Shown in pieces: positions 33,992 to 64,000 of a stretch of DNA of 64,000 bases; the stretch's first letter is position 1, and each line of letters begins with the position of its first letter. Source of the DNA: Allosphingosinicella sp. Its GTDB lineage: Bacteria > Pseudomonadota > Alphaproteobacteria > Sphingomonadales > Sphingomonadaceae. Location: positions 1,988 through 65,987 of the forward strand of contig JBAWCC010000047.1 in NCBI GenBank assembly GCA_049590095.1. The letters are read 5' to 3'. A model generated the notes under the pieces. That model was given only the letters and a program-made list of their open reading frames with translations, was not told the origin of the DNA and made no database searches. Both the position numbers and the translations under genes were made by a program.

Positions 33992-33994
33992 GAC

Positions 33995-34375
33995 CTAGGG
34001 CCGCCTGATGGAACCGCAGTGCCTCTCGATTAATGAGAGCAGCGCCGGAGGAATTATCCCGCGCTTGAGCAAATCGCGGATGCATTTAGCTGTTCTAGAT
34101 GAGAGGTAGATGTCGGCACCGGGTTTCCTATCAGGATCGTTCGGATCGAGCGTGACGGGATCGCAGTCCAGGGTGACTTCACGGATACCCGGTGACTTTT
34201 CTTCATCAGCGGCCGTGCGAGCCATCCACGCCTCGAAGCATTCGCGGTCCTTGGCCTCGGGCATCAAAAGCTCATTGCCATCGGTCGAGAGGACGGCGCG
34301 TTGCGCCCGGCCTGCCTCAGCGGATCCAAGGCAAAGACATGCCGCCAAGGCGATCCTGCCAATCAATTTCATCAT
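33995..34375 (-). CDS. small secreted 4-Cys protein, unknown function (~126 aa)
   Basis: ATG 34375/34372 is preceded by GAGGAGGAGG. Signal peptide MMKLIGRIALAACLCLGSAEA. Four Cys in the mature part. An alternative GTG at 34405 would overlap the TpsB stop. Confidence 0.6.
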   Translation of the reverse strand: MMKLIGRIALAACLCLGSAEAGRAQRAVLSTDGNELLMPEAKDRECFEAWMARTAADEEKSPGIREVTLDCDPVTLDPNDPDRKPGADIYLSSRTAKCIRDLLKRGIIPPALLSLIERHCGSIRRP

Positions 34376-34401
34376 AGCCTCCTCCTCGAGGTGGTACGCA
34401 T

Positions 34402-36426: not shown

Positions 36427-36455
36427 CTGCGTGATCGGGCTCGGCCTCCCCCCCC

Positions 36456-41670: not shown

Positions 41671-42465
41671 CTATTCTGCGGGAAACACGAACATGGGCGG
41701 AAGCGGATGCTTGGCGGCGAACGCAGCCGCCATTGCGCTAAAGGGCGAGGAAGGATCTGCAGCGCGCTCGTAAAATTCTCTGCGGCGCGTGACCAATTCT
41801 CTCAGCTCTGGATGCGGGTCCTCGTTGTTCTGGACGATGAACGCGTGATAGTCGCGCAGCTTGGCGATCAGTTTGTCACGCGGCTTGTGCTCAAGCCGGT
41901 CGAGCCCAAGTACCTTTATTGTCGCTTTCCCCCTCGCGCTGATCCCGCGGGGCATCTCGTCGACAAACTCGATATGCTCGGTGGGGTCTTCCGCGTCCGG
42001 CTTGAGAAGCTGCGGCGCTTCGGCCGCGATGGCCCGATGATGGTTGCGGGCGCGGGCGGCTGGGTCATCAAGTGGAAACTGCGTGCCCTTGTTGCTGCTG
42101 TTGCAGAATTGGCACGCGAGCAGCAGGTTATCCCACGCATAAGCCAGCCAATAATAGCCCGGCGGGGATGCCTTGATTCCTCGCGCCTGCTTGAAGCTTC
42201 CCTTTGGACGCCAATGCTCCACATGCGCGACCGCGTAGGGCCTGGGTATGCGAACCTCGCAAAATGCGCACTTCCCATGATGCGACACGTCGAGCGCGTC
42301 CCTGACCGTCTTGTGCCCGTAAATGGAGTCCTTGATCGTCAGGGTCTTAAGACCGCCGTCATAGGCCGCCGGGTCCTTATCATAGGCTTCGCAAAGCTCC
42401 TGCGCGCCCTCGACGCCGAGCGTCAACAGAACTGCAGGCGCGTCCCCTTTGTCGATCCGGATCAT
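41671..42465 (-). CDS. ptuB: HNH endonuclease, Septu PtuB-like
   Basis: HNH core (GKCAFCE ... HVEHWRPK ... NLLLACQFCNSSNKG). Starts 5 nt downstream of an AAA ATPase gene, the gene pair typical of Septu. Confidence 0.55.
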   Translation of the reverse strand: MIRIDKGDAPAVLLTLGVEGAQELCEAYDKDPAAYDGGLKTLTIKDSIYGHKTVRDALDVSHHGKCAFCEVRIPRPYAVAHVEHWRPKGSFKQARGIKASPPGYYWLAYAWDNLLLACQFCNSSNKGTQFPLDDPAARARNHHRAIAAEAPQLLKPDAEDPTEHIEFVDEMPRGISARGKATIKVLGLDRLEHKPRDKLIAKLRDYHAFIVQNNEDPHPELRELVTRRREFYERAADPSSPFSAMAAAFAAKHPLPPMFVFPAE

Positions 42466-42470
42466 CCGCC

Positions 42471-43859
42471 TTAGCCTTGCGAGTCTTCCGCAGCTCCGGA
42501 CATGAGCTGCTCAATATCTGCTTCCATACTGACCGAGCCGCTTTGCACCGCGTGAGCGAACCGGCTTAGCTCGGTGAGGCGATCGCTCTCCGGCGGGGAC
42601 AGGTCGCCTTTCTGAATCAAGTCGCGCCGCTCCGCGAGCAGCGCCTCGAAACGCAAGGGCAGCGAGGTCTCAAGCTCGAAAGCGCCAGTCATGACCTCAT
42701 CGAGCCTAACCGCCGCCGCTGGAAACGGATCAGGCTTGATGACAGCATGGTCGCCTTCCCAGCGCACGATCGAGACGGGATCGCCCGCAGCGATGCTCTC
42801 CTGCGCGATCACGGGCGAGTGGGTCGACACGATGAACTGAATTCTGGGAAAATGCTTCAACAGCTGGTGGCGCAAGCTGCGTTGCCAAACCGGATGCAGA
42901 TGCAGCTCGACCTCGTCGACCAGCACGATCGCGCTCTCCCTAAATGGGTCTAGGCTGTCAGGAAATTTGGTGCGCAGTCTCCATGCAAGGTCGACTAGCC
43001 ATGCGACCGTCGTTTGAGCGCCGAGGCTCAGCTGAGCGAGAGGGGCGAAGCCGGACGGCGTCCTGACGCTTATTCCACTTCCCTCAAGCTTCAGATCCTC
43101 TGGCGAGAGCTTTGGGATCAAGGCGGCGATAGCTGCCAGCATGGAGTCGCGGAAACCTTCCCAGCGACCCTGCTCCTCTGCATTATCGGCACGCTTAGCG
43201 AGCAGCGCATTATAATCAATGCGATCAGGCACTTCATCAGGATCGACTAGCTTGATCTCCTCGTCGAACAAAGCTTCTGTCGGGTCAAGCTCCTCGAACG
43301 CGGACAGGTTGCCATGGCCTGCGTGCCGAAAGGCACTGTAGGCGATAACCAGCGGCCCATCTCCGGATAGCAGCCGCCTGGCGAGCTTGGGCTCCGCTGA
43401 TTCCAACTCTCCGCATCTTGTGACCACGTCATAGCCAAAGCTGAACGCCTCGCCTTGCTCGGAGACCATATCGACATAGAGGCCAGCGGTCATCGCATCG
43501 CCACGGCGAACAAGGCTTTCAATGCGGGCATTCTCATAGTCCGCCAACGCGGGCGCGATCGCGTCCGGAGGACCGGCTTCCTTGCCCGGCGCGCTAGCCT
43601 GCTCCGGCTGCTGCTCCGCCGGATCCTTCTTGAGGACCGGATCCTCGTTTAGGAAGGCGGACGCGGGCGTGCTGACCGTGGGCACGGGGCGCATCGCCGC
43701 CAAGGCTTGCAAAAGCGTGGTCTTGCCAACGCCGTTCTCGCCGATGATCACGCACCAGCGCGCCGGCTTGCCATCCTTGGAGAGGTCGAGAGTCTGCCGC
43801 CCGCTAAACGCCCGCACATTGGCCAGCGACAGGCCGAGATAGTGGATAGGGTCGGACAT
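42471..43859 (-). CDS. ptuA: AAA15/21-type ATPase, Septu PtuA-like
   Basis: ATG 43859 with GAGGAG RBS. Walker A CVIIGENGVGKTTLL and Walker B-like AIVLVDEVELHLHP. ABC/SMC-like layout. Confidence 0.55.
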   Translation of the reverse strand: MSDPIHYLGLSLANVRAFSGRQTLDLSKDGKPARWCVIIGENGVGKTTLLQALAAMRPVPTVSTPASAFLNEDPVLKKDPAEQQPEQASAPGKEAGPPDAIAPALADYENARIESLVRRGDAMTAGLYVDMVSEQGEAFSFGYDVVTRCGELESAEPKLARRLLSGDGPLVIAYSAFRHAGHGNLSAFEELDPTEALFDEEIKLVDPDEVPDRIDYNALLAKRADNAEEQGRWEGFRDSMLAAIAALIPKLSPEDLKLEGSGISVRTPSGFAPLAQLSLGAQTTVAWLVDLAWRLRTKFPDSLDPFRESAIVLVDEVELHLHPVWQRSLRHQLLKHFPRIQFIVSTHSPVIAQESIAAGDPVSIVRWEGDHAVIKPDPFPAAAVRLDEVMTGAFELETSLPLRFEALLAERRDLIQKGDLSPPESDRLTELSRFAHAVQSGSVSMEADIEQLMSGAAEDSQG

Positions 43860-44282
43860 CGGCTCCTCGGACGGCAGCAAGTGCGTCGTGCCTAGACGCA
43901 TCCATCGGCTCTGACCACGTTGATGTTGGGCTTGACGCCTCCGATCTGCCTTTCGATCGAACTTTTCGGTTTGTGTCGGGCAGTAGCAATTTTCAGTATT
44001 TATCGCTGAGATGTGTCAAATAATATGGCTAAGGCTTACATTCAGTCTCCATATGTTTTAAGATGAATTATCACGCATCCCCAGTCTTTCAGCCAAAATG
44101 TGCCTAGAGTTAATTTGGACAACGCAGCTATACTGCGACTGCGTTTGCTACATGCTGGAAGCTCGCCGTGATCGGCGTTTCGACGAGGGGCGAGGCACGC
44201 ACGACATGCCGTCGCATAGGCACTTACACGCGTCCGACGCGCATGATATGGGATTTACAGAATCCTGCCACGGAGAGACACA

Positions 44283-44438
44283 ATGGAAGCGACGCCGATC
44301 CCGGCTCCCAAAGACGTTGCCCCCGATCCGCTTGGAGTCGACAGCGTCGTGCTGGCGCGACTGCTCGAGGAGGTGCGCAACAACATGGCAAGCGCGCCGA
44401 CGGCGTACAATCGGATGCACAACCGCCATAACCGCTAG
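44283..44438 (+). CDS. RiPP precursor peptide (51 aa) with C-terminal YNR-M-HNR-HNR core; not in ORF track
   Basis: GGAGAG RBS 7 nt upstream of ATG 44283. Translation is MEATPIPAPKDVAPDPLGVDSVVLARLLEEVRNNMASAPTAYNRMHNRHNR. TAG 44436-44438 lies 4 nt before the rSAM/SPASM gene. The leader resembles Fxs-type leaders. Confidence 0.65.
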   Translation: MEATPIPAPKDVAPDPLGVDSVVLARLLEEVRNNMASAPTAYNRMHNRHNR

Positions 44439-44442
44439 CGGC

Positions 44443-45579
44443 GTGCTGAGCGGAAAACTTCCCTCGACGAAGATCGATACCGTGCTCGTCAAGCTTGCGA
44501 GCCGTTGCAATCTCGACTGCGATTATTGCTACGTCTACAATATGGGCGACGACGCTTGGAGGCGTCAACCTAAGCTCATGTCGCTCGAGCTGATTGACGC
44601 GCTTGGCCGAGGACTGGCGCGGCTGATCGTGGCACAGAACGCGCCCCTTAGCGTGGTCTTTCACGGCGGCGAGCCGCTGCTGATGGGGCCTGCTCGCTTT
44701 GAGGCGATCTGCGCTGCGATACGCGCGCACGTCGGCCCTGAGATAGGCCTGCACGTGCAAACCAATGGCGTGCTGCTGACGGACGGCGTGATAGATGTCT
44801 GCGAGCGCTATGACGTCGGCATCAGCATCAGCATCGATGGCCCGGCGCAAGTCCACGATCGCCACCGCGTCACCCGGACTGGGCGCGGCTCGCACGCGGC
44901 TGTGCTGGCGGCGATCGCGCGGCTCGCCGCCCATCGGGCCGGAGGCACGTTGTTCTCGGGCCTGCTGTGCGTGATCGATCTCGCAGCGGATCCCGCGGAG
45001 GTGTATCGGTTTTTGAAGGCGACCGGAGCGCCGAGCATCGACTTTCTGTACCGGGATGGAAACCACGATCAGCTGCCCGTTGGCAAAACGCATCGTGACT
45101 CCGCCGAATATGGTACCTGGATGGCCCAGCTCCTCGACGTCTACCTTGGCGATCCCGCACCCATTCGCGTTCGCGTCCTCGACGACATGCTTCGCCTCCT
45201 GCTTGGCGGGCATGCGGTGAAGGAAGGCATAGGCGAGAACGCTTTCGGGATCCTGGTGGTCGACACCGATGGCACGGTGGCTAAGAACGACACCCTTAAA
45301 TCGGCAGCGAGTGGTGACCGGTTCAGTGGCAGCTGGTCGGTGCAGGATGGCCTTGACGCGCTTGTCGCATCGGCTGAGTTCGCTGCCTATCATCGCTCAC
45401 AGAGTCCGAGCGCGGCCGCCTGCATCGCCTGTACGGATCTGGCCATTTGCGGCGGCGGTATGCCAACCCACCGCTGGAGCGCTGAGCGCGGCCTTGATAA
45501 TCCGTCGGTGTTCTGCGCCGATCAGAAGCTGCTGATCGGGCAGATGCGCGCACGGATAGGATGCCGAGACGCAGCATGA
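44443..45579 (+). CDS. radical SAM/SPASM peptide maturase (FxsB / three-residue-cyclophane-forming type)
   Basis: CxxxCxxC motif ASRCNLDCDYCYV and Cys-rich SPASM tail (ACIACTDLAICGGG ... VFCADQ). GTG 44443 is chosen because the upstream part of track ORF 44098.. overlaps the precursor. Confidence 0.75.
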   Translation: MLSGKLPSTKIDTVLVKLASRCNLDCDYCYVYNMGDDAWRRQPKLMSLELIDALGRGLARLIVAQNAPLSVVFHGGEPLLMGPARFEAICAAIRAHVGPEIGLHVQTNGVLLTDGVIDVCERYDVGISISIDGPAQVHDRHRVTRTGRGSHAAVLAAIARLAAHRAGGTLFSGLLCVIDLAADPAEVYRFLKATGAPSIDFLYRDGNHDQLPVGKTHRDSAEYGTWMAQLLDVYLGDPAPIRVRVLDDMLRLLLGGHAVKEGIGENAFGILVVDTDGTVAKNDTLKSAASGDRFSGSWSVQDGLDALVASAEFAAYHRSQSPSAAACIACTDLAICGGGMPTHRWSAERGLDNPSVFCADQKLLIGQMRARIGCRDAA

Positions 45580-46157
45580 TCCTGGCGGATTTCACAAGCA
45601 GACAAGTTAAGGCGACGCCCTTTCCGCATGTCCGTGCCGTCCATGCCTTGCCGGAAGCGCTTGCGTCCAACGTGCTCGACTGGCTCGATGCGGACGCACC
45701 TTGGTCGCTGACGGAGGCCTCCTTCTACGAGCAGCAGGAGTTCTCGCTGCTCAGCGCCGACCTCCCTGAGGCCGTGGAGCCGCTCACCTCGTGCGCGCTC
45801 GTCGCCTCGATCGCTAGGGAGCTGGGCGCGTCGCTCAGCTCGGGACCGCTGGAGCTGGTCGACGTTAACGCGCACCGGCTTCTCTCGGGCATGACAATTC
45901 GGCTGCACAATGACTTTCTCGGGACCGCCGAGGAGTCGCACCGCATGCTCATCCAGCTCAATCGCGGCTGGTCGCAGGAGCAAGGCGGCCTGCTGATGCT
46001 GTTCGAGGAGGACCGCCCGGAAAGCGTGGCCGACATGGTGTTGCCGGTCCACCGCAGCGCCTTTGGATTCGAGATTTCCGAGTGCTCGCATCATGCGGTC
46101 TCGACGGTGCACAATGGCGTCCGCGACACGATAGTCTACACCTTCAAGAAAACGTGA
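45576..46157 (+). CDS. 2OG-Fe(II) oxygenase-superfamily protein
   Basis: ATGA overlap with the rSAM stop. HxD motif (IRLHNDF) and a distal His (CSHHAVSTV). Confidence 0.6.
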   Translation: MILADFTSRQVKATPFPHVRAVHALPEALASNVLDWLDADAPWSLTEASFYEQQEFSLLSADLPEAVEPLTSCALVASIARELGASLSSGPLELVDVNAHRLLSGMTIRLHNDFLGTAEESHRMLIQLNRGWSQEQGGLLMLFEEDRPESVADMVLPVHRSAFGFEISECSHHAVSTVHNGVRDTIVYTFKKT

Positions 46158-48684: not shown

Positions 48685-49551
48685 TCAGGCAGCCATCGGT
48701 ACCTCAGTGGTGAACTTCAGTACCGCGGTCAGCTCCGTCTCAATGCGCTGGAGCAGGCAGCGCCGGGTTTCCTGGTTAGCGTCAGCGTCCAGTGGCTTGA
48801 TCGTGAGGACGTAGGCGCCCTTGGCAGATCTCTTGAGAACCGCCTGCCCCGGCTCGGAGCCAAGCTCCACGACATAATCGGCGCCTTCGCCGTCGATGTC
48901 CAAGAGCGTCCGCAAGAGCTCGCTCGGGCTGCACCTTCGGTCCGATGACGCGATCTCTTTCGCCTTATCGATCATGGCCTGGCCGCGATCGGATTTCAGC
49001 GCCTGAAGAAGCTTTGACCCGAAACTGACACTTATCGCCTCCGGATCTTTCAGGGCGAAGCGCACCTCGTCGGGGATCGCGAGCAACGCCAGCGTGTGCG
49101 AGACAGTGGTCTTGTTCTTCTGGACGCGCTCGGCGAGCCTGTCCTGGACGCCGCCGCAGAGGTTGACGAGCGCGTAGTGCCATGCCCTCGCGGTCTGGAA
49201 TGCGGTGATGCCCTTGCGGTCCTCGTTTTCCGAATAGGCGATCCGCCACGCCGTGCGATCGTCCGCCTCTACCAGATACGCTCGCAGCTTGGGCCCCTTG
49301 TCGGCTTGTTGAAGGAAGCGGACCGCCCCCAGACGCCGAGTGCCTGCGAGCACCTCGTAGCTTCCGTCGGCAAGCTTGCGGACCGGCACGGGGGTCATCT
49401 GGCCGTGTTGGCGTATGCTCTCGATCAACGCCTTGTTCTTCTCTTTGTCAAAAGGCGTGTCGCACCGTGCATTGGCCGGCGAGATCGTTACGTTGGAGGC
49501 ATCCATGAAGAGAAGTTTGCGGGGCGTCGCCGCTTCTGTATTCGAGGCCAT
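48685..49551 (-). CDS. ParB/Srx-domain protein (partition- or nuclease-type ParB-like)
   Basis: ParB box-like YEVLAGTRRLGAVRF followed by an HTH-like segment (KTTVSHTLALLAIP). Confidence 0.65.
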   Translation of the reverse strand: MASNTEAATPRKLLFMDASNVTISPANARCDTPFDKEKNKALIESIRQHGQMTPVPVRKLADGSYEVLAGTRRLGAVRFLQQADKGPKLRAYLVEADDRTAWRIAYSENEDRKGITAFQTARAWHYALVNLCGGVQDRLAERVQKNKTTVSHTLALLAIPDEVRFALKDPEAISVSFGSKLLQALKSDRGQAMIDKAKEIASSDRRCSPSELLRTLLDIDGEGADYVVELGSEPGQAVLKRSAKGAYVLTIKPLDADANQETRRCLLQRIETELTAVLKFTTEVPMAA

Positions 49552-49557
49552 GACGCA

Positions 49558-49890
49558 TTACTCCTGATTGCCGCCGGCACGGGCCGCCGAGTTGGGGCTT
49601 TCGGGCGCCTGGACCGGATCGCTCACCAACCCCGCGGCGAGCGCGGCTTTGATCGTCTCGCGCTTTCGCATCGCGATATTAAGCCTTTCCTCAAGACCTT
49701 CCCGCTTGTGGCAGAGCCGAGAGACCGCGCTGGGGTCCGCGGCGATCCGGGCGTCGATCTGCGAAATTTCCGTGTTGAGCGTGGCGACTAAGGTATCCAT
49801 CACCAGCAGCGAGTCCTGCCATCCCTGTGCGGTGGGAAGCCTGCCGTCGTGGACAGCGTCCACCAGGCCCGGAAAATGCTCGAACTGCAT
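49558..49890 (-). CDS. hypothetical protein (110 aa)
   Basis: ATG 49890 with AAGGAGG 6 nt upstream. Lies 6 nt upstream of the ParB-like gene. Confidence 0.5.
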   Translation of the reverse strand: MQFEHFPGLVDAVHDGRLPTAQGWQDSLLVMDTLVATLNTEISQIDARIAADPSAVSRLCHKREGLEERLNIAMRKRETIKAALAAGLVSDPVQAPESPNSAARAGGNQE

Positions 49891-50247
49891 GCTCGCCTCC
49901 TTCTGCCTTTGTCCTGACGCAGCGCCGTTCCCCATCCACAACAGGAGACCGTCGCCGCTTGGGCCCAATTGTACAGGATGATCTACGACAACAAAAGCCA
50001 CCCCTCACAGGATTAGTGAAATAAAGATTTTCGGTCGATGGATTGGGGGAGAGAATGTCTACGTTAATGAAATTGAAAGGTTGGAGCCATGCGAGGCAAC
50101 CTATTACAGTTGTAGTGACACATTGATGGGGGGAAGGCGTTTGCGGTCAGTAAATATTTCGTCTTCTCGGTATTGACAGCTCGACAACCTTGATATCCTC
50201 TGTTTCTGGGCTCGTAGGTGGTCTCTGGTCTTGCCGGGAGGCGTAGC

Positions 50248-52077
50248 GTGGCGTTTGGAATCGATTGGACGGACGGCAGAGAAGCCGTGACAGAGGCGCT
50301 CAAGGAAGCCCATCGCAGGCGGCATCGCGAGGGTCGCCTCGAGGGCCGGCGATGGCGGGAGGCGCAGGGGGTCGCACGTGAGGAGCGTTCGTCCCGGCGC
50401 GCGCGCGATGAGTGGCAGCGCGGGTTCGCCGCGATGCGCCGGCGTCGCCTTCGCCAGCAGGCCGAAGATGAACGGGACGGCCGCCGCCTCGGGGCTGCCT
50501 TAAGGAAGGCCGCTCGGGAAATGGAGGCGCAGGGTCGGGACACCTCTTTCTACGCCGGCTTCGAGCAGAGACTGATCGACTACATCCCGGGCGAGGGCCG
50601 GCACGCCCGCGATCTCATCGTCGATTGGTACAGCCGCGGCTTCGACTCCGGCCGCGAGCGGACCGATGCCGGTCGGAGGAAGCCGAACAGCGCCCGCACC
50701 GCCGAATGGTCGCCGGGCGAGTTCGCCGACAAGATCGGGTACATCTATCGCGACGGAGCCAGAGAGGATGTCAGCGGCAGCTTCCTCTCCAACATGGGCG
50801 AAGACGAGGCGGAGGCCGTCGCCTGCGCCCACGCCGTCGAAGAGGCCGAAGGAATGGGCCGCGGCAATGGCGGGGTCTACAAACACGTCATCATCGCCCT
50901 TCCTCACCAGCTGACGCCGCTGGAGCGGCTGGCGCTTCTCGAGGAGCTTGTCGCCCCGCTGCGCGAGATGGGCCTTCCTTTTTGCGCGGCGCCTCACCGG
51001 CCGGATCCAAAGGGCGACCCGCGCAATTTTCACGCGCACATCCTTCACTCCCAGCGGCCGATGACTCGCGGGGGGCCCAATCAATGGAGCTTCGGCGCGA
51101 GCAAGCTGACTTGGTTCGATTGCCGGGAAGGCGTGCTCCTCCAGCGCCGGCTCATCGCCGCGGCGTTCAACCGGGCTCTGGAGCGGGCTGGCCATGAGGA
51201 GCGCTGGACCTCCAGGTCTCGCGAAAACCGCGGCCTTCCTTCGCCTGGAAACACAAAGAAGGGCCCGGAGCGGACCAGGGCGGAACGTGACGCAACGGCG
51301 GCAGAGGCGGCGGCAGAGGCCGTGCGCTCGGAGCTGCGCGAGCGTGAAGCGGTCGCCGCAGGCGCCGAAGCCTTGCTGGAGTTGTCCGATCGTCTCGAGG
51401 ACATCTTCAGCCACCGCATGAAGGAACGTCGCGAGCGTGACGCGGACGAGCCGCCGACCTGGGAGGAGGAAGAGGCCTGGCAGATGCGCCTAGCCGATGA
51501 GCGCGCCCGTGCGGAAGGGCGTCCTCTGCCGAGCAACATCTTCTACGGGATAGAGGAGCCGGAGGAGGAGCCTCCTGGCTCCACGCCCGCCCCGGCTATC
51601 GCGGTCGACGCCGGGAGAATAGCTCGCGAGGATGCGGAACGCCGCCGTGAGGAGGTTCGCCGCGAGGAGGCGGCGAAAGAAGAGGCCGAACGGCGTCAGA
51701 AGCGAAAGAAGCTGCTGGCCCGAGAGGCTCAAGTCGCTCGCAGCATCGAGAACTTTCCAACGCCGATGAACGACCCGGATGTCTACTTCAGGGTGAGGGC
51801 CGCCGTAACCGGCAACCTAAAGCTTTACTCAGCCAGGAGCATTGCAGGCGATGTCATCATCGGCACCGTTGACGGCCTCTTCGCTGAGGACGCCGTTCGA
51901 ATATCGGAATGCGAGGCGGGGAGGCGCTATTTGGTTGCGGTCTCGCAGGGGCTTGATGCCTGGCCGACGGTCGAACCTCCGGGGCTCCGCCATGTCTATG
52001 TTCCGGGTCAGCCCCATCCGACGGCGTCCGTCGCCGAGCAGCACCAGCACCGGACGCGCGGACGGCGCGGCCGTTAA
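50248..52077 (+). CDS. MobA/MobL (MOBQ)-family relaxase-like protein with Arg/Glu-rich C-terminal half
   Basis: GTG 50248 with GGGAGG 6 nt upstream. Motifs resemble the relaxase family: IGYIYRDGA (Tyr region), VIIALPHQLTP and GDPRNFHAHILHS (His triad). Confidence 0.6.
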   Translation: MAFGIDWTDGREAVTEALKEAHRRRHREGRLEGRRWREAQGVAREERSSRRARDEWQRGFAAMRRRRLRQQAEDERDGRRLGAALRKAAREMEAQGRDTSFYAGFEQRLIDYIPGEGRHARDLIVDWYSRGFDSGRERTDAGRRKPNSARTAEWSPGEFADKIGYIYRDGAREDVSGSFLSNMGEDEAEAVACAHAVEEAEGMGRGNGGVYKHVIIALPHQLTPLERLALLEELVAPLREMGLPFCAAPHRPDPKGDPRNFHAHILHSQRPMTRGGPNQWSFGASKLTWFDCREGVLLQRRLIAAAFNRALERAGHEERWTSRSRENRGLPSPGNTKKGPERTRAERDATAAEAAAEAVRSELREREAVAAGAEALLELSDRLEDIFSHRMKERRERDADEPPTWEEEEAWQMRLADERARAEGRPLPSNIFYGIEEPEEEPPGSTPAPAIAVDAGRIAREDAERRREEVRREEAAKEEAERRQKRKKLLAREAQVARSIENFPTPMNDPDVYFRVRAAVTGNLKLYSARSIAGDVIIGTVDGLFAEDAVRISECEAGRRYLVAVSQGLDAWPTVEPPGLRHVYVPGQPHPTASVAEQHQHRTRGRRGR

Positions 52078-54521: not shown

Positions 54522-55070
54522 CTAGTTTTCCCAGATATAAGCGGAGAGAAGCCTATCGGCGGTCGTGATGCCCCTCCAGGGCTCACGCTCGGCGGCGCCG
54601 CCGGTGTCGTTGATCCAGGGCTGGGTCAGGGTTGGAATGAGACCGTGCCGCGTCAAGCGGAACAGGATCTCACCCGGACCCGTCCGTCCCACCAGCCAGA
54701 AGCGCTTCGAATCCGTGAACAGGCTGAGCCGACGTATCAGTGTTACCGGGCCTCCGTCCGTGTACGCCACATCGAACGTGACTTCGGCGATGTCGGCTAT
54801 GGGGTCCCGCATTCGCGCCAATATGGTCGTCGTCTTCCGCCAGTCCGCCGAGCCAACCAACTCGCGCTGGAAGACCGGTGCTACGGCCCGAGTAGCGCAC
54901 ACGTCGACCGCCGGTCCCGGGAGGTGATTCAGTTCGGGAAGCTTCCAACCGATGGTTGTCACCCGCCGACTCTCGGATTCCGACATGGCGGCGGCGAGAA
55001 AGTCAGATGTGCGGCGAAGCCGTCGGACTTCATCGAGCGAGACTATATTGGATCTTGGCAGCGGGTTCAT
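54522..55070 (-). CDS. hypothetical protein, paralog of 56154..56672
   Basis: N-termini align (SNIVSLDEVRRLRRTSDFLAAAMS versus SEVISLEDTRRAKRAVLFLAATMS). Similar length (182 versus 172 aa). Confidence 0.5.
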   Translation of the reverse strand: MNPLPRSNIVSLDEVRRLRRTSDFLAAAMSESESRRVTTIGWKLPELNHLPGPAVDVCATRAVAPVFQRELVGSADWRKTTTILARMRDPIADIAEVTFDVAYTDGGPVTLIRRLSLFTDSKRFWLVGRTGPGEILFRLTRHGLIPTLTQPWINDTGGAAEREPWRGITTADRLLSAYIWEN

Positions 55071-56153: not shown

Positions 56154-56672
56154 TCAGCTTTCGAGAAACGCCACGAGTTGCTCGTCGGCTCTCGCCTTGG
56201 CGGCGACAAGCTCGATCTCATCGGTGAACGGAGCCGAAACCGTAGGGATCGGCCCCTCCGGGCGGAGTCGCAGCGCCACCGGATCCTCGGCTCCGCCGAT
56301 GAGCCAACGCTGGCCGTCTTGCGAGAAGGCGAGCCTGTATCCCGTGAGGGCCACAATGCCGCCATCGGCGAGATAGACGTCGATCAACAGCGCCTGCTTC
56401 TCGCCACGCCGGCATAGCCGGCCAATCATGCACGTCGTCTGCCGGTGCCGGACCCAGGCCAGGATCTCGCGCTCTGGCGGCAAGCCGTCGGCGGCGACGG
56501 CGATATCTACTCTCGGGCCTGCGAAATACTTCAGGCCCCGAATGGGGCAGGCGGCCCCCCTTAGGCTGTGACCGTTCGCACCTGACATCGTTGCGGCGAG
56601 AAAGAGGACGGCGCGCTTGGCACGGCGGGTATCTTCAAGCGATATCACTTCGGATCTGGGACGACGGCTCAT
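56154..56672 (-). CDS. hypothetical protein, paralog of 54522..55070
   Basis: See the paralog alignment above. No family recognised. Confidence 0.5.
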   Translation of the reverse strand: MSRRPRSEVISLEDTRRAKRAVLFLAATMSGANGHSLRGAACPIRGLKYFAGPRVDIAVAADGLPPEREILAWVRHRQTTCMIGRLCRRGEKQALLIDVYLADGGIVALTGYRLAFSQDGQRWLIGGAEDPVALRLRPEGPIPTVSAPFTDEIELVAAKARADEQLVAFLES

Positions 56673-57164: not shown

Positions 57165-57357
57165 GGCCGCTCCGAAAAAAGAGGAAGGGCTTCGGTCTAG
57201 CGACAGGCCAGCGCTGCCTTGAGCGAGGCAGGCGATCGGCGGGAGAGGCCCGTTCTCAAGCACCGGCCGCCACTAGCGCCGCCCGAAATTCTGCAATCCG
57301 CTCGCATCGGCCTTCTCCACGATCGGAGACGCCCCGCCCCCGGGGTCCTGTCTCCAT

Positions 57358-57518
57358 GTTTCGAGGCGGTGCCGCCGGCGAGAACCGGACGTCGACAAGC
57401 TGCGACCTAATAGCCGCGAGCGTCTGCAGGCCGAATGACCTGAATGTGCGCGCTCGCCATCGGTCGACCCGGAGGGTCGAGGCCGGCTCATAGTCGCGAG
57501 GTTGTCAAGCCTCGGCCC
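57358..57518 (-). repeat. right arm of the ~165-bp imperfect inverted repeat
   Basis: See 55265-55432. Both arms face inward toward genes 55479..56144 (+) and 56835..57164 (-). Confidence 0.8.
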
Positions 57519-57650
57519 ACCAGGCGGTGGGCCAGGCGAGATAATCACGGATAATGTTGAAAGGCAATAGCCCACCTGTCGTTTTTCGACGGGCCCCGGA
57601 AAAGCCCTGCAAGGCTGTGCATTGCCCTCGCAGCGGGATAGGATCGGCCG

Positions 57651-58574
57651 ATGCGCACCGACCACGATCACCTTCCGGCCGCCAAGCGGCGCGAGCTGGA
57701 GCGCGTAGTCCAGATCCTGTTCGAGGAGTTCGCAGACTCGACCGCAATCGCCACCTCCGACTGGAAGAAGCAGGCGCGTATCCTCAAGGTCATCCTATAC
57801 GGCAGCTACGCCCGCGGCGGCTGGGTCGACGAGCCGCACACCGCCAAAGGCTATCAGTCGGACTTCGATCTCCTCATCATCGTCAATCATCACAAGCTGG
57901 CCTCCCGAGCGGAATTTTGGTCTGGCGCCGAGGAACGACTGAACCGCGAACTGGCGATCACAAAGTCGCTGAGAACGCCCGTCAACTTTATCGTGCACAG
58001 CCTCCACGAGGTGAACGATGGCCTTAGCCAGGGCCGCTACTTCTTCATGGACATCGCCCGCGACGGTATAGCGGTCTACCAGAGCGACGAGAGGGACTTG
58101 GTCGAACCGACGCCGCGGACGGCGGGCGAGGCCCTGGCACTGGCGAAGGAATATTTCGAGGAATGGCTACCGAGTGCCCGCCGATTTGAGCGCGCAGCGA
58201 AGGTGATGATCGAGGAAGGAGGGGTCAAGGAAGCCGCCTTCCAGCTTCATCAAGCTTCGGAACGTTACTACCATTGCGTCCTGCTGGTCTGCACTTTCTA
58301 TACACCCCACGTCCACAATCTCGGCTTCCTGCGCACCCAGGCGGAACGGATCGACATGCGCCTGTTCGACGTGTGGCCGCGCGAGGCGAAGCGGGAGCGC
58401 GCCATGTTCCAGAAGCTCAAGGAAGCATACGTCAAAGCCCGTTATTCAAAAAGTTTTCGCATCAACGAAGACGAGGTGGCCTGGCTAGGTGCTCGGGTTG
58501 AGGAACTCGGCCGAGTTATCGAAACGGTGTGCTCGGCGCGGCTCCACGACTTGAAGCGAATTGCTGGCGAGTAA
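57651..58574 (+). CDS. fused nucleotidyltransferase (MNT) - HEPN domain protein
   Basis: NTase motifs ILYGSYARGGW and DFDLLIIV. HEPN-like C-terminal half (AAFQLHQASERYYHCVLL ... AYVKARYSKSF). Confidence 0.7.
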   Translation: MRTDHDHLPAAKRRELERVVQILFEEFADSTAIATSDWKKQARILKVILYGSYARGGWVDEPHTAKGYQSDFDLLIIVNHHKLASRAEFWSGAEERLNRELAITKSLRTPVNFIVHSLHEVNDGLSQGRYFFMDIARDGIAVYQSDERDLVEPTPRTAGEALALAKEYFEEWLPSARRFERAAKVMIEEGGVKEAAFQLHQASERYYHCVLLVCTFYTPHVHNLGFLRTQAERIDMRLFDVWPREAKRERAMFQKLKEAYVKARYSKSFRINEDEVAWLGARVEELGRVIETVCSARLHDLKRIAGE

Positions 58575-58917
58575 GTTTCTCCTGCTCGGGACGCTTGGCG
58601 ACGACATCCAAATTTCGACGCCTTCTATCAAGCTCGGCGCGAGAGGCTCTGCGAGAGACTCATCGAACTGCTCGCAACTCCGCAGACGCGCCCGGCAGTT
58701 ACTCCCCAGGCGGCATAACCGCCCCTCCGTCTCACCAGTCATGCGCCGAGGACGCGCAGGCTATTGCTGTCTGTTGCGCCGAAGACAAAACTCTGTTCCC
58801 CCACACGGCCCGCCTCCACACCTGACTTTTCAGGTGGCGCTAGCTTCGCGGCAGGCTAATCTGGAAGAAAGCGCGGGACTCGCCGCGGCAGAATTTCCTG
58901 AGAGGGCGCAAGGGCAC

Positions 58918-59679
58918 GTGGGGATACAGGGGCTGAGGCCGTTCTTCGGCTACTACGGGGGCAAATGGCGGGACGCCCTGCGCAACTACCCGGCGCCGAA
59001 GCATGAGACGGTCGTCGAGCCCTTTGCGGGCTCCGCCGGCTATGCGCTGAGGTACCCGCACAAGAAGGTCGTCCTTTGCGAGCGGGACCCCCAGATCGCT
59101 GCGGTCTGGAGGTATCTGCTGAAGGTCAGGCCGAGCGAGGTCGGCGCCATCCCCGACGTCCCGCTCGACGGCACGGTCGACGACCTGCAGGTCTGCGAGG
59201 AGGCGAAATGGCTCGTCGGGCTGTGGCTCAACAGGGCGACTGCACGCCCGCGCAAAAGTCCGTCAAGCTGGATGCGGGCGAAGATCCGGCCAGGCTCGTT
59301 CTGGGGCGAGCGCGTCCGCTCGACGATCGCGTCGCAGGTCGAAACGATCCGCCATTGGCGGTTGATCGAGGGCGACTATACGGCCTGCGGGGCCGAGGGA
59401 TTAGCGACCTGGTTCATCGACCCGCCCTACCAGCTGGCGGGCCAGCATTATCATCACGGCTCGCGGGACATCGATTTTGAGGATCTCGGGCGTTGGTGCC
59501 GAAGCCGTCAGGGCCAAGTCATCGTCTGCGAGAATGAAGGGGCCGACTGGCTGCCTTTCAAGCTGCTCGACGCGGTGAAGACCACCCGGGCCGGCCGGCG
59601 CTCGGTCGAAGTCGTGTGGCTCGCCGACTCCCCTGGCGCAGCCCTGGACGACGAGACGGCCGTCAAAGCCGCGGCATGA
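58918..59679 (+). CDS. Dam-like (D12 class) N6-adenine DNA methyltransferase
   Basis: GTG 58918. N-terminal FFGYYGGKW, motif I EPFAGSAGYAL and motif IV WFIDPPYQ. Confidence 0.75.
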   Translation: MGIQGLRPFFGYYGGKWRDALRNYPAPKHETVVEPFAGSAGYALRYPHKKVVLCERDPQIAAVWRYLLKVRPSEVGAIPDVPLDGTVDDLQVCEEAKWLVGLWLNRATARPRKSPSSWMRAKIRPGSFWGERVRSTIASQVETIRHWRLIEGDYTACGAEGLATWFIDPPYQLAGQHYHHGSRDIDFEDLGRWCRSRQGQVIVCENEGADWLPFKLLDAVKTTRAGRRSVEVVWLADSPGAALDDETAVKAAA

Positions 59680-60242
59680 GCAAGGGCGAAAGAGCGGGTG
59701 ATCGCACGAGCGCCGTCACCGCGCGCCTGCACGAGGCCTTTCTCCAGCCGCTCGCCGGAGCGGTGGAGAGCAGCAGCGACATCGGCCGCAAACCTCTGCT
59801 GGTCGATCTCGGCCCTCCGCACCCTGCCCGCCTGCGGGTCTATCTCTATTCTCTCGTTCACGGAGCCGGCGAGCGGCAGAGACGCGAATACAAGATCGTG
59901 CTCCGGGTCCCTGGCCAATCGGTCGACAGATATGGCAGCTTTGACCATTCCGGCGGTCGTTTCACGATCCTCGCCGGCTACGATTCCACGCTCGACGTAT
60001 TCGTCCTCTGGGACGCGGTGCTCCATCCGCGGTTCACGAACGGCGGCAACCTCCAAGTACGGGACGAGGTCGTCCGCAAGGCCGCGGCGGTCGGCAGCGC
60101 GGAGCAGGTCCGGCGCCTCGGCAACGGCAGCCGCGAACTGGTGCTCGCGTGCCAGTCCCACAGCCTTGCCCGGGCACTGGCCGCGCGGGTGGCTTCGACG
60201 GGCGGCCTCGAGGAGGGCGAATGCGTCGGCTTTCTGACCTGA
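59676..60242 (+). CDS. hypothetical protein (188 aa) coupled to the MTase and PLD-helicase
   Basis: ATGA overlap with the MTase stop. The 3' end overlaps the next gene by 22 nt. No family recognised. Confidence 0.55.
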   Translation: MSKGERAGDRTSAVTARLHEAFLQPLAGAVESSSDIGRKPLLVDLGPPHPARLRVYLYSLVHGAGERQRREYKIVLRVPGQSVDRYGSFDHSGGRFTILAGYDSTLDVFVLWDAVLHPRFTNGGNLQVRDEVVRKAAAVGSAEQVRRLGNGSRELVLACQSHSLARALAARVASTGGLEEGECVGFLT

Positions 60243-62341
60243 CTCTCAAGACCGCCTACCACAAGGGCCGCGACGACATCGCGCGCGACTTCTACCTGCC
60301 GTGCATGGAGCGGGCGGCGCAGCTCGACCGCGCCGTCGGCTATTTCAGGAGCAGCGCCTTCATCATCTCCTGGCCTGCCTTGCGGGCGTTCGTGCGCGAC
60401 GGCGGCACCTATCGCATCCTGTGCTCGCAGGTGCTCGCCGACGACGACGTCGACGCCCTGAGCGAGGGCTATGAAGCCCGCATCGACCAGGATCTCGGCG
60501 CGAGATTCCGTGCCGAGGTGGAGGTCATGCTCGGCGACCCGGTCCTGCGCGCGCCGGCGCGGGTCCTTGCCGCGCTCGTCGCGCGCGGATCCCTCGATCT
60601 TCAGATTGCGATCCTCAGCGGCCAACAGCTTCGAAGCGCGAGCGGCCGCATCTTCCACGACAAGCTCGGCATCTTCCGGGACGCATCTGGCAACCGGGTG
60701 ATGTTCAAGGGTTCGATGAACGAGACCTGGAACGGCCTCGCCGCCGACGGAAACCTTGAGTCTGTGGACGTCGCCGCAAGCTGGATGGGACCCCGCGACC
60801 TGGAACGCGTCGACGTCGAGGACAGCTACTTCGGGGATCTTTGGAGCCGCACCTATCCGGGGCTGATCGTGCGGCCGTTCCCGGAGGTGGCGAGGGAAGA
60901 ATTCGTTAAGGCGGCCGACCCGAACTGGGAAGAGACGGTCGACTCCCTCCTTCTCGATCAGGAGAGGGAGAGCCGCCCGGACGTCCGCGGCCGGACGCTC
61001 AAGTCGCACCAGGCGAGCGGCCTCGCCTCCTGGACGGCGAACGGACGGCGCGGCATCCTCGCCTTTGCCACCGGCGCAGGCAAGACGTTCACCGCGATCA
61101 CGGCCATCCGCGAGTCCTTCTCTCACCGTTCGGAGCCGCTCCTCGTCGTCGTGCCGGACCAGACCCTCTTCGCGCAATGGTATGAGGAGCTGGCCGAGAC
61201 GACCGCCGATTTCGACCCGCAGATCCTGCGCGCCGGCGCCGGCCACTCCAACTGGCGCGGCCATGTGAGAAACTGGGTTAGCAAGAGCGACCGGCGCCGA
61301 ATCGTGCTCGCGACCGTGCAGACCGCCGGCTCGGACGAGTTCCTAGGCGAGCTGCCCCGATCGGGGGCCGTCTTCCTCGTCGCTGACGAGGTCCACCGCC
61401 TCGGCTCTCCCCGCTACAGGGCTCTGCTCGACGAGGAACGGTTCGGCGCGCGGCTCGGCCTCAGCGCCACGCCCGAACGCTACGGTGATCCCGAGGCCAC
61501 GGCGGCCATTCTCGATTTCTTCGGGGGCGTGCTTGAGCCGCGATACACGCTCGAGGACGCGATCCGCGACCAGGTGCTCTCGCCTTACTTCTACCGGCCG
61601 CATACGGTGAGACTCACCGACGACGAGGCGGGCCGTTGGCGAGTGCTGGCCGACGAGGCGTCGCGGCTGCGCGCGAGGATCGCTGCCGGCGACCAGACGC
61701 CGGGGCTTCAGCAAAAGCTTCAGAACCGGCTGATCGCCAGGGCGCGGATCGTCAAGCAGGCGGCCGGCAAGATCGGCCTGGCGGTCGAGGTCCTCCGATC
61801 CGAGTACCGAGCAGGACAGCGTTGGCTGGTCTATTGCGAGGAATCGGGCCAGCTCGCCTCCGTCACCGCCGCCCTCTCCGGCATCGGCCTGACCGTGCTT
61901 CCCTATCATTCCGCGATGGAGGGGGACCGAGAGCAGACGCTGCGGTGGCTCTCCCGCCGCGGCGGAATTGTAACGGCGATCAGGTGCCTCGACGAAGGCG
62001 TCGACATACCCTCCGTCACCCACGCCCTGATCCTCGCCTCCTCCCGCAATCCGCGCGAGTTCGTTCAACGGCGCGGGCGCGTGCTCCGCAAGGCGCCGGG
62101 CAAGGCGCTCGCTTATGTCCACGACGCCATCGTCCTGCCGCCGGAGCGACGCGCCGACGACGCCGGCGCGCGTGAGAGGGACACGGACTCCCTCACGACA
62201 GGCGAACTGACCCGCGCCATAGAATTCGCGCAATATGCCGATAATCCCGCTTCTGCGGCTGATCTAAAAGGGATAGCTCTGGCCGCCGGCCTCGACTGGC
62301 GCAGCCTGGCCGACATGGGAGACGAGGATGCTGACGAATGA
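60221..62341 (+). CDS. PLD-family (HKD) nuclease domain fused to SF2 DEAD/DEAH-box helicase
   Basis: GAGGAGGG RBS upstream of ATG 60221. HKD motif FHDKLGIFRD..FKGSMNET. Helicase motifs I FATGAGKTF, II LVADEVHRL, III LSATPER and VI VQRRGRVLR. Confidence 0.8.
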   Translation: MRRLSDLTLKTAYHKGRDDIARDFYLPCMERAAQLDRAVGYFRSSAFIISWPALRAFVRDGGTYRILCSQVLADDDVDALSEGYEARIDQDLGARFRAEVEVMLGDPVLRAPARVLAALVARGSLDLQIAILSGQQLRSASGRIFHDKLGIFRDASGNRVMFKGSMNETWNGLAADGNLESVDVAASWMGPRDLERVDVEDSYFGDLWSRTYPGLIVRPFPEVAREEFVKAADPNWEETVDSLLLDQERESRPDVRGRTLKSHQASGLASWTANGRRGILAFATGAGKTFTAITAIRESFSHRSEPLLVVVPDQTLFAQWYEELAETTADFDPQILRAGAGHSNWRGHVRNWVSKSDRRRIVLATVQTAGSDEFLGELPRSGAVFLVADEVHRLGSPRYRALLDEERFGARLGLSATPERYGDPEATAAILDFFGGVLEPRYTLEDAIRDQVLSPYFYRPHTVRLTDDEAGRWRVLADEASRLRARIAAGDQTPGLQQKLQNRLIARARIVKQAAGKIGLAVEVLRSEYRAGQRWLVYCEESGQLASVTAALSGIGLTVLPYHSAMEGDREQTLRWLSRRGGIVTAIRCLDEGVDIPSVTHALILASSRNPREFVQRRGRVLRKAPGKALAYVHDAIVLPPERRADDAGARERDTDSLTTGELTRAIEFAQYADNPASAADLKGIALAAGLDWRSLADMGDEDADE

Positions 62342-62519
62342 ACTGAGCGAATTGGCGACTGTCGTCGCCCGCATTCGCGGCGAGGCCCATCCCGAGATCG
62401 ACCAGCGCTTCGTCAGCGCCGTGCTCCAGGCCGAGGCCGATGCGGCTGGAAACCACGGAGCGGCTCTCCAGGCGATCCGGCGCGCGGTCGCCGATGCACT
62501 GGAGACGGATCCCGTCTGA
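62328..62519 (+). CDS. small protein (63 aa) translationally coupled on both sides
   Basis: The start overlaps the helicase 3' end by 14 nt. The stop TGA 62517-62519 overlaps the next ATG (62518). All-helical, acidic. No family recognised. Confidence 0.5.
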   Translation: MLTNELSELATVVARIRGEAHPEIDQRFVSAVLQAEADAAGNHGAALQAIRRAVADALETDPV

Positions 62520-64000
62520 TGCTTCGCCTGACGCGCCTCCAGATCGACGGGTTCGGGCCGTTCGCCGAGCCGCAGGAAATCATATTCCCGGCCGAGACGG
62601 GCGTTGTCGTCGTCTACGGCGAGAATATGCGCGGCAAGACAACCCTCCTGAACGCGATCCGCTACGCCTTCTTCGGCTATGCGCTCGGACGCGGCTCGCG
62701 CGAGCGCAAGCTCCATAGCCTTTCGAACCGCGAACGGGCCGCCCGCGGCGAATATGGCTTCAGCGTCAGTCTCTCCTTCGATTTCGACGGGGAGAGCTAC
62801 GAACTGGTACGCGAATGCCTGCCCCAGGTGGCCAAGCCGGAAACCGACGGCGACTACCGCCAGGACGCGATGCTCCGCTGCGGGGACCGCATCCTCGGGC
62901 CGGACCAGCGGGACGCGGCCCTGACGCGCATTTTCCCGAAGGAGATCTCCCGCTTCTTCCTGTTCGACGGCGAACTGCTCCAGGAATATGAGGAGCTGAT
63001 CATCGCCGAAAGCGAGGTCGGGCCGGACATCTCCGCCGCGATCGAACGCATCCTCGGCGTCCCGATCCTCAAGGCCGCCCGCAGCCACCTCGCCGAGCTG
63101 GCGCAGGAGGCGGACCAGGAAGCGGCGCGCGAGGCGAGCCGGCATACCGAGACGGTCGGCATCGGCAACGCGCTCAACACGAGCATCGCCCAGCGCGCCG
63201 CCCATCTTGCGGAACAGAAGCGCAAGCAGGACGAGTTGGAAGCGCTCACGCGCCGCCGCACCGAGCTCGAGGCGCAGCTCGCGGCCGACCGGCGCTACGC
63301 GGAGATCCTCGAGCGGCGCGACGAGGCTCTTCGGCAGGCGGACGCGGCGAAAGACAGGAAGGACCGGCTCGCGGCCGAGATCAGGACCGCGATGGCGGAA
63401 GCCTGGCGGACCCTCCTCAAGGAACCGATCCGCCGCGCCCGCACCGAGGCCCAGGCCGCGCTCGAGGCGGAACTCCAGCAGCTTCGGAGCAGCCTCAGGA
63501 GCAAGGCGCTGGAGACCGGCGAATGCGAGATCTGCCTCCAGCCGGTCGGCCCCGACGCGAAGGCTCACCTCGAAGGATCGACCGACGGAGCGTCTGCTGC
63601 CGCCCCGGCCCAGGGAAAGATAAGCCATCGCGACCTCGCCGCCCTAGTCGAGACGGACAATGCTGGCGAGATCCGCCAGCTCGTCCGCCAGCACGAGGAA
63701 GCGGCGGTCGAGGAGAAGACGGCCCGTGACCGGGCGGCGGACCTCGACGCCGCGCTCAAGGACGCCGACCCGGGCTCCATCAGGAGCACCCAGGCGGACT
63801 ATAGCGACGTCCAGGAGCAGATCGGATTCGCCAAGCAGGCGATCGAGCAGGAAGGAGCCAAGGTCGCTCAGCAGGATGCGGCGATCGAGCGCCTGCGCCA
63901 GAAGCTCAAGCAGACCAGCCCCGGCGACCTCGCCGCGATCGAGCGTCGCATCGAGCTTCTGCGCGCGGCGGAGGACGTCTTCCACCGCTCGATCGAGGCC
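62518..64000 (+). CDS. DndD/Rad50-like SMC-type ATPase (3' end beyond window; not in ORF track)
   Basis: I translated 62518 to 64000 by hand and found no stop. The protein begins MLRLTRLQIDGFGPFAEPQEIIFPAETGVVVVYGENMRGKTTLLNAIRY (Walker A). It also has FFLFDGELLQEY, long coiled-coil-like Ala/Glu/Arg/Gln text and a CxxC hook-like GECEICLQP. The minus-strand track ORFs 62264..63628 and 63644..63985 are shadows of it. Confidence 0.75.

Follow-up and report, generated by a model that had tools for sequence, protein, structure and literature searches.

The operon at positions 58918-64000 of a 64-kb stretch of Allosphingosinicella sp. DNA (the window, throughout its length) comprises, as judged by homology, genes one to five of a six-gene cassette in which a methylase and an MTaX1 protein are linked to a CxC ABC-ATPase system, also known as PbeABCD. 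The cassette stands alone, with no dnd partner in the visible DNA. Computational descriptions of systems of this methylase-linked kind already exist (Rakesh et al. 2024; Xiong et al. 2019), and what is new here is modest: a methylase of Dam fold in place of the reported cytosine C5 and permuted N4 types, and fusions of MTaX1 to McrB-like and GHKL ATPases. A preliminary description of the same DNA had proposed a methylation-linked defence system, a general idea that we find to be correct, of a composition that fitted no named type. This last claim is refuted by the full-length matches of two of the proteins to the PADLOC models for PbeA and PbeC, by the Pfam match of a third to MTaX1, and by the corresponding module set in the literature (PMC10853773).

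Organisation of the operon

All five open reading frames (ORFs) lie on the + strand and every junction is overlapping (by 4, 22, 14 and 1 nt), an arrangement that the preliminary description had given with the same coordinates. The methylase gene extends from a GTG start at 58918 to 59679 (253 residues) and shares an ATGA with the MTaX1 gene at 59676-60242 (188 residues), which in turn overlaps the gene for PbeA, the PLD-helicase (60221-62341, 706 residues). The ORF at the PbeB position (62328-62519, 63 residues) is connected by a TGATG to the gene for the PbeC ATPase, which runs from 62519 to 64000 and, as had been noted, has no stop in the window, its reading frame of 494 codons being open to the last position. 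The starts agree with those set by an independent gene caller on an identical metagenomic contig (L001; 253, 188, 706 and 63 residues), which bears an identical copy of the operon. This second contig, the only one with an identical PbeA (Logan accession SRR28024120), ends before the window does and cannot be used to extend it. When 57600-64000 was compared with plasmids by megablast, the sole match was in the HEPN gene upstream of the operon, and a single scan of genome contigs returned 11 loci, none of them identical to the window. No promoter-like site was found in 57300-64000, and terminator-like sites in this interval were not commoner than in shuffled sequences.

For the assignment of the proteins we used the profile libraries of Pfam, PADLOC-DB v2.0.0 and NCBIfam, and checked motifs by regular expression and in alignments of homologues; all motifs that had been named before are present, and they are invariant in these alignments. 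The 706-residue protein matches the PADLOC model for PbeA (PDLC02707) with E 2e-194, residues 4-679 aligning with model positions 2-668 of 672. It has a single HKD nuclease domain of the PLD superfamily (about residues 1-250), followed by a superfamily 2 (SF2) helicase or translocase (about 255-680), with Pfam matches to ResIII (E 8e-23) and Helicase_C, bearing out the fusion of an HKD nuclease to an SF2 helicase that had been read from the motifs. These comprise HDKLGIFRD at residue 146, GSMNE at 164, GAGKT at 285, DEVH at 389, SAT at 415 and QRRGR at 616; across 11 homologues (41-79% identical), neither the HKD motif nor helicase motifs I, II, III and VI vary, and each of the HKD residues H146, K148, D154, N167 and E168 is invariant. 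Xiong et al. (PMC6459918) reported PbeA to be without a nuclease motif, whereas the HKD motif of the window protein is clear, and the invariance of its residues supports a nuclease over that statement. PbeA is the predicted effector of the system.

The truncated ATPase matches the PADLOC model for PbeC (PDLC02747) with E 1e-121 over residues 2-493 and carries a Walker A motif (GENMRGKT at 34), an FLFDGE at about 148 and a CEIC at 336-339, with Walker A and both cysteines of the CxxC invariant in eight homologues. It belongs to the ABC ATPases of the CxC clade, the sister clade of DndD, with a coiled coil and a CxxC zinc hook, much as the DndD-like ATPase with a CxxC hook had been described; its matches to models of DndD itself are far poorer than that to PbeC. 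The end of the window cuts the protein at residue 494 of about 641; the C-terminal signature and Walker B motif are present in full-length relatives (RSAGAEHVVALAL and GPIVMDSPFGRLD in L004), whose ATPases have 640-647 residues. By comparison with these, the window copy is normal and, as had been supposed, truncated by the end of the window rather than a pseudogene.

The 63-residue protein between them is acidic (isoelectric point 4.7), as predicted from its small ORF, and overlaps both of its neighbours. It has no match in Pfam, PADLOC or NCBIfam, and by its position, size and charge it would be PbeB, the 'SP' of the CxC systems. An acidic ORF of 63-69 residues occurs between PbeA and PbeC in nine relatives of the clade with D12-type methylases; annotated systems on plasmids have it too, under the NCBI name 'CxC ATPase DNA modification system associated small protein'. 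It diverges faster than its neighbours, with identities of 65% and 40% where PbeA has 80% and 62-65%, and we propose a regulatory role for it.

The methylase and MTaX1

The methylase is the predicted modification component of the operon. Its motifs GGKW at 14, FAGSAG at 36 and DPPY at 168 are invariant in 25 sequences, and their order, X-I-IV, is that of the alpha-group. The protein matches the PADLOC model MTase_II (PDLC03340) with E 5e-35, and falls under the thresholds of Pfam D12 (PF02086; 18 bits, cutoff 22) and TIGR00571 (15.8, cutoff 114.85); a word-index search yielded 4874 homologues. Searching the PDB with the single sequence gave only chance-level matches, and a profile of the 25 sequences had E. 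coli Dam as its top match, at only E 0.026 and with a collinear alignment. The AlphaFold2 model (mean predicted local distance difference test, pLDDT, 83) retrieved the Dam structures 4rtj and 2g1p in Foldseek with E 1e-9, while the best TM-score, 0.66, was to M.CbeI (PDB 7m6b), an enzyme that is annotated as D12-class, carries DPPY and produces N4-methylcytosine (m4C). The window methylase is about 16% identical to E. coli Dam and M.CbeI and has in common with them the fold and the order of motifs (GGK-W, FxGxxG, DPPY), but it belongs to a defence operon and is neither an orphan enzyme nor a Type II partner. Based on the model, it is a divergent member of the Dam fold. Of the 'Dam-type adenine methylase' proposed earlier, the Dam-like fold thus stands, while the adenine target has become uncertain, as the best structural match makes m4C.

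The 188-residue protein, previously listed as unrecognised, belongs to the Pfam family MTaX1 (PF20296, methylase-associated X1; E 5e-16, with a 25-bit cutoff). It is basic (isoelectric point 9.3), and its gene lies directly 5' of the PbeA gene in all 19 relatives' loci that we recovered and read for gene order, down to a PbeA identity of 41%. Its AlphaFold2 model (pLDDT 87) has a weak match in the PDB, the PD-(D/E)xK homing endonuclease I-Ssp6803I (E 0.03), on which we do not rely; a sequence search of the PDB found no match. The family is small (clustering at 50% identity gives 361 clusters from a set of 1.84 billion representatives) and occurs in a range of fusions (homologues P0443, P0479, P0498, P0389, P0390 and P0504). 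It is N-terminal to McrB-like AAA_5 ATPases, in the place where the reader domains of Type IV systems sit, and to one GHKL ATPase; it is C-terminal in proteins with sigma-70 region 4 (sigma-r4) or helix-turn-helix (HTH) domains and in a DUF3427 protein of 1862 residues; and it is also fused to a PF01555 methylase. Because of these fusions to methylase, McrB-like, GHKL and HTH modules, MTaX1 is a probable DNA reader or adaptor between the methylase and the restriction module, and it appears to be a portable DNA-recognition module across several conflict systems.

A six-gene cassette in distant bacteria

Among 8000 candidates scored, 1972 were PbeA relatives with E<=1e-20, many of them 60-80% identical to the window protein. 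The closest clade, with PbeA identities of 60-80%, always shows the order methylase (about 253-290 residues), MTaX1 (171-188), PbeA (703-706), PbeB (63-64), PbeC (640-647) and a small protein of 114-116 residues. We found this order in two metagenomic loci (L004, L005), Mesorhizobium (L006), a metagenome-assembled genome of Gemmatimonadales (L008), an uncultured bacterium (L009), Archangium gephyra (L018), Symbioplanes lichenis (L019) and Bradyrhizobium (L020). Nine independent relatives with all six genes span Alphaproteobacteria, Myxococcota, Actinomycetota and Gemmatimonadota, with cultured Mesorhizobium, Bradyrhizobium, Archangium and Symbioplanes among the carriers, and a comparison of the loci places the arrangement far beyond chance. 

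The sixth gene, which we call PbeD-like, lies directly 3' of the PbeC gene in the relatives and would at this locus fall beyond the end of the window, where the preliminary description had expected more genes. Its 114-residue product is homologous to that of the gene after PbeC on an annotated Aurantiacibacter plasmid (hhalign probability 98%), and neither it nor the PbeD profile has a match among PDB sequences. Because the genes 3' of it are non-homologous between loci, the cassette ends here; a seventh conserved gene can be ruled out, the downstream genes of L004 and L018 being unrelated.

Outside this clade, the methylase is the part that changes. In a Clostridia relative from a sister clade (L014) there are two methylases of the PF01555 family, and MTaX1 is fused to one of these; Acidimicrobiia relatives keep MTaX1, PbeA, PbeC and PbeD with no recognisable methylase upstream. 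As the type of methylase differs between clades while MTaX1-PbeA-PbeC-PbeD is constant, the methylase seems to be exchangeable. In two of the Acidimicrobiia loci (L013, 5914-6999; L016, 5761-6999), MTaX1 forms the C-terminal half of a protein of 361-412 residues, the N-terminal part of which, about 190 residues, has no Pfam family and no relation to the window methylase; the Acidimicrobiia form may represent a variant of the cassette that has a reader but no methylase.

Relation to known systems

The original description of the CxC system is reportedly that of Krishnan et al. in 2020. Rakesh et al. (PMC10853773) equate PbeABCD with their earlier 'CxC ABC-ATPase' systems and describe PbeA as an HKD nuclease joined to an SF2 helicase, PbeB as a small disordered protein, PbeC as an ABC ATPase with a CxC zinc hook, and PbeD as a cognate of DndE. 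Their module set includes a methylase and MTaX1 (Fig. 4A iv), the methylases being cytosine-C5 or circularly permuted N4 (PF01555-like) enzymes, and they propose a model of the restriction-modification type, with suicide offered as an alternative. The module set of these systems is identical to that of the cassette described here, they are likewise independent of dnd genes, and their MTaX1 gene adjoins the methylase; the difference lies in the short, divergent, Dam-fold methylase of the window (D12-like, alpha-group, DPPY), which is of neither the C5 nor the N4 type.

PbeABCD was defined together with DndCDEA in haloarchaea, where defence required each of the four pbe genes (Xiong et al. 2019, PMC6459918). 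In that system viral DNA replication was blocked with no visible degradation, and phosphorothioate (PT)-modified virus escaped restriction. The same study counted 553 pbeAC pairs, of which 320 were without dnd genes, 155 of these 320 lying within 10 kb of methylases, and regarded solitary pairs as possibly PT-dependent or inactive. With the haloarchaeal system the window locus has in common homologous PbeA and PbeC proteins, the order A-B-C-D, a PbeB of similar length (63 residues, 66 in haloarchaea) and its nature as defence borne on mobile DNA. It differs from it in that the phosphorothioation module is absent, with a methylase and MTaX1 upstream instead, and in the PbeD-like protein, which has 114 residues in the relatives as against 152 in haloarchaea and is not matched by the models for canonical PbeD or 'dnd-associated protein 4'. 

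Phosphorothioation genes were sought with DndA, DndB, DndC and DndE queries from two annotated plasmid dnd clusters, none of which found a counterpart by tblastn, either in the 64 kb of the window or within 7-10 kb on the flanks of the loci of 15 relatives; DndD as query matched PbeC alone. A Pfam scan of 20 large ORFs of the window likewise gave neither a PAPS reductase nor a class-V aminotransferase (Aminotran_5) domain. With dnd genes detected neither in the window nor beside the relatives' cassettes, the locus is not a DndCDEA-PbeABCD system as Xiong et al. define it.

The cassette also resembles Type I and Type III restriction-modification systems, with which it shares the combination of a methylase with an ATP-dependent SF2 translocase-nuclease and, as the likely common logic, the discrimination of self from non-self by methylation. 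Its nuclease is of the HKD and not of the PD-(D/E)xK kind, though, it lacks the HsdS/Mod specificity architecture, and it adds a Rad50/DndD-like zinc-hook ATPase, a small acidic protein and MTaX1. We found no HsdS-like ORF, and HsdR models match the PbeA motor with only E 1e-7. BREX, DISARM and Ssp, to which the locus had been compared, proved unsuitable as comparators, as no PADLOC model of the Drm core (drmA/drmB, a DUF1998 helicase pair) or of the Pgl/Brx core (pglZ, brxC, pglX) matches; the one match from these systems is that of BrxHI to the C-terminal helicase domain of PbeA, with E 1e-3. The PADLOC-DB families that were matched include no model for MADS, a methylation-associated defence system with eight mad genes, either. 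The PADLOC and NCBIfam scores rule out BREX, DISARM and Type I/III as assignments.

Genomic setting

In the relatives, the cassettes adjoin integrases, transposases, relaxases and other defence systems, such as CBASS in L004 and an OLD/UvrD pair in L019. A MobA/MobL relaxase gene (50218-52077, + strand) precedes the window locus by about 6.8 kb, and genes for ParB, Septu and a nucleotidyltransferase-HEPN protein are nearby. ParB is encoded at 48685-49551 on the - strand, and the interval 48685-52077 with ParB and the relaxase resembles a segment of a plasmid that can be mobilised, or of an integrative element. The two Septu genes lie on the - strand, ptuA at 42471-43901 (PADLOC E 1e-136) and ptuB at 41671-42465 (E 1e-85). 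With both Septu and the Pbe cassette in it, the region qualifies as a defence island, and to judge from the surrounding genes this island is predicted to be carried by a mobilisable element.

The gene that immediately precedes the operon (57651-58574, + strand) encodes a nucleotidyltransferase-HEPN fusion protein of 307 residues, for which DNA of 71-74% identity is found on Polymorphobacter plasmids. As a member of the system it can be ruled out, since it is not adjacent to the cassette in L004, L006 and L018-L020. Between the relaxase and the operon are two paralogous ORFs on the - strand (54522-55070 and 56154-56672; 182 and 172 residues, 31% identity, E 3e-18), for neither of which a Pfam match is listed among the genes of the identical contig L001. 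On the + strand, a gene for a radical SAM protein of 493 residues, whose viperin-like match in PADLOC is weak (E 1e-11), overlaps one for a 2-oxoglutarate-Fe(II) oxygenase (44098-46157). Further upstream and on the - strand, we note a two-partner-secretion pair (a TPS-domain protein of 1111 residues and a ShlB-type transporter of 696) followed by a 601-residue CHAT-domain protein, a caspase-like protease (29800-38261); an ORF of 1877 residues with a SIR2_2 domain (24275-29908; PF13289, E 3e-15) and no PADLOC match, which could encode an uncharacterised SIR2-based defence or NAD-depleting protein; and an ORF of 1979 residues (8696-14635) with a strong coding signal (G+C content at third codon positions, GC3, 0.86) and only a marginal multicopper-oxidase match.

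On plasmids of Aurantiacibacter and Pontibrevibacter, Pbe loci are flanked by large genes annotated as 'sigma factor-like HTH DNA-binding' (L022, 9359-10672; L026, 3636-6689). These echo the fusions of sigma-r4 to MTaX1 and may be another recurrent accessory of Pbe systems.

Discussion

Considering the components together, we favour the explanation, at a probability of roughly 0.6, that the cassette acts as an ATP-dependent analogue of a restriction-modification system. The Dam-fold methylase would mark host DNA at a short motif with N6-methyladenine (m6A) or m4C, and a dimer of PbeC, with its Rad50/DndD-like zinc hook, would load on DNA and scan it together with the small, putatively DNA-binding PbeD-like protein. 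MTaX1 would report whether sites are marked and so couple the methylation state to the effector, a role that we assign to it because the type of methylase varies while MTaX1-PbeA-PbeC-PbeD stays and because other proteins carry it fused to AAA_5, GHKL and HTH modules. Unmarked foreign DNA would then license PbeA to use its nuclease and translocase, either to cleave this DNA or to block its replication as reported for the archaeal Pbe system, with the acidic PbeB restraining or tuning the complex. It is conceivable, and to us a tentative idea that has the odds somewhat against it, that the Pbe chassis (PbeA-D) can work with any kind of modification, MTaX1 being an exchangeable reader of the mark through which a clade of Dam-fold methylases not classified before takes over from phosphorothioation.

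Several observations weigh against the restriction-modification explanation. The only Pbe system tested so far depends on phosphorothioates, and cleavage of viral DNA was not detected in it (PMC6459918); we found no experimental paper on a methylase-linked one. PbeA scores 330 bits with TIGR04095 (dnd_restrict_1), under its cutoff of 600, and the ATPase scores 80 bits with TIGR03185 (DndD), under its cutoff of 246, although scores below both equivalog cutoffs are in keeping with a sister clade of the dnd-linked equivalogs. The PbeD-like protein has no match in Pfam, PADLOC or NCBIfam, and the homology of this partner to DndE in the CxC systems is not reproduced here: comparisons of it by hhalign with canonical PbeD and with DndE, a protein of two ribbon-helix-helix domains, were non-significant, in shallow alignments for which the control comparison of PbeD with DndE was also negative, so that their power was low. 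The completeness of the window cassette, that is the 3' part of the PbeC gene and the PbeD-like gene, we infer from the relatives, and it is domain fusions and gene context that suggest a reader role for MTaX1. Finally, DPPY does not tell m6A from m4C, since Dam, which makes the former, and M.CbeI, which makes the latter, both have it, so that the target base cannot be read from this motif.

Among the alternatives, abortive infection deserves the most attention, even if we consider it improbable. PbeB would here hold the PbeC/PbeD scanner and PbeA inactive until a phage trigger removes it and PbeA cuts host and phage DNA alike, the methylase and MTaX1 only modulating the response or limiting self-damage. 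A small, acidic and fast-evolving PbeB is what one would expect of a regulator that faces a trigger, the archaeal system halted viral replication with no visible DNA degradation (PMC6459918), and a suicide model has been put forward (PMC10853773); moreover, the Acidimicrobiia relatives retain the MTaX1-PbeA-PbeC-PbeD part in the apparent absence of a methylase. In the clade of the window cassette, however, translation of the methylase is coupled to that of the operon and the two are conserved together in four phyla, which is the signature of self-marking, and the escape of PT-modified virus in the system that was tested points to discrimination and not to suicide. Much less probable, in our judgement very unlikely, is a canonical, PT-dependent PbeABCD system whose dndCDEA genes lie elsewhere in the genome, with the methylase and MTaX1 as a separate or orphan unit. 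Just 64 kb of the replicon are visible, Pbe and dnd clusters do occur together on plasmids (for example L021 and L026), and PT dependence, or inactivity, was raised for solitary pbeAC pairs by Xiong et al. (PMC6459918). But the genes of methylase, MTaX1 and PbeA overlap (by ATGA and by 22 nt) and move as a unit in the mobile islands of unrelated phyla, MTaX1 is fused to a methylase in a sister clade of the cassette, and neither the window nor the 7-10 kb flanks of the relatives gave a match to DndA, DndB, DndC or DndE.

McrB-like AAA_5 ATPases carry MTaX1 N-terminally, in the position of Type IV readers, which could be taken to mean that it recognises foreign modified DNA and recruits PbeA to it, the methylase serving some other purpose, and the Acidimicrobiia versions without a recognisable methylase would suit such a modification-dependent, Type IV-like system. 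An active-looking methylase is, however, always co-encoded and coupled in the clade of the window, and a system that targets its own mark would defeat itself, so that we give this possibility even less credit. It seems least credible that the cassette is a divergent form of an ordinary Type I/III restriction-modification system or of the DISARM/BREX class. The pairing of a methylase with an ATP-dependent nuclease, the ResIII-type SF2 motor of PbeA (Pfam E 8e-23) and its weak matches to HsdR and Type I/IIG models are compatible with this, but there is no HsdS or Mod-type subunit with a target recognition domain, the nuclease is HKD instead of PD-(D/E)xK, the cassette has a zinc-hook ABC ATPase and a small acidic protein as integral components, and the models of Type I/III, DISARM and BREX reach E 1e-8 or worse, compared to 1e-194 for Pbe.

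For this window, the outcome is chiefly the correct annotation of a known system in what is predicted to be a defence island on a mobilisable element. Pbe/CxC systems are common, yet the sole experiment on Pbe concerns the phosphorothioate-linked archaeal version, whose mechanism is disputed between replication arrest without cleavage and HKD-mediated cutting. A compact six-gene bacterial cassette with an ordinary methyl mark is a tractable route to three questions: how the pair of zinc-hook ATPase and PbeD finds its target, whether PbeA cuts DNA, and what role MTaX1 has. Should the Pbe chassis indeed be indifferent to the kind of modification, it would represent a distinct class of ATP-dependent restriction-modification, in which a Rad50-like zinc-hook ATPase and a small DNA-binding partner scan sites without a specificity subunit.

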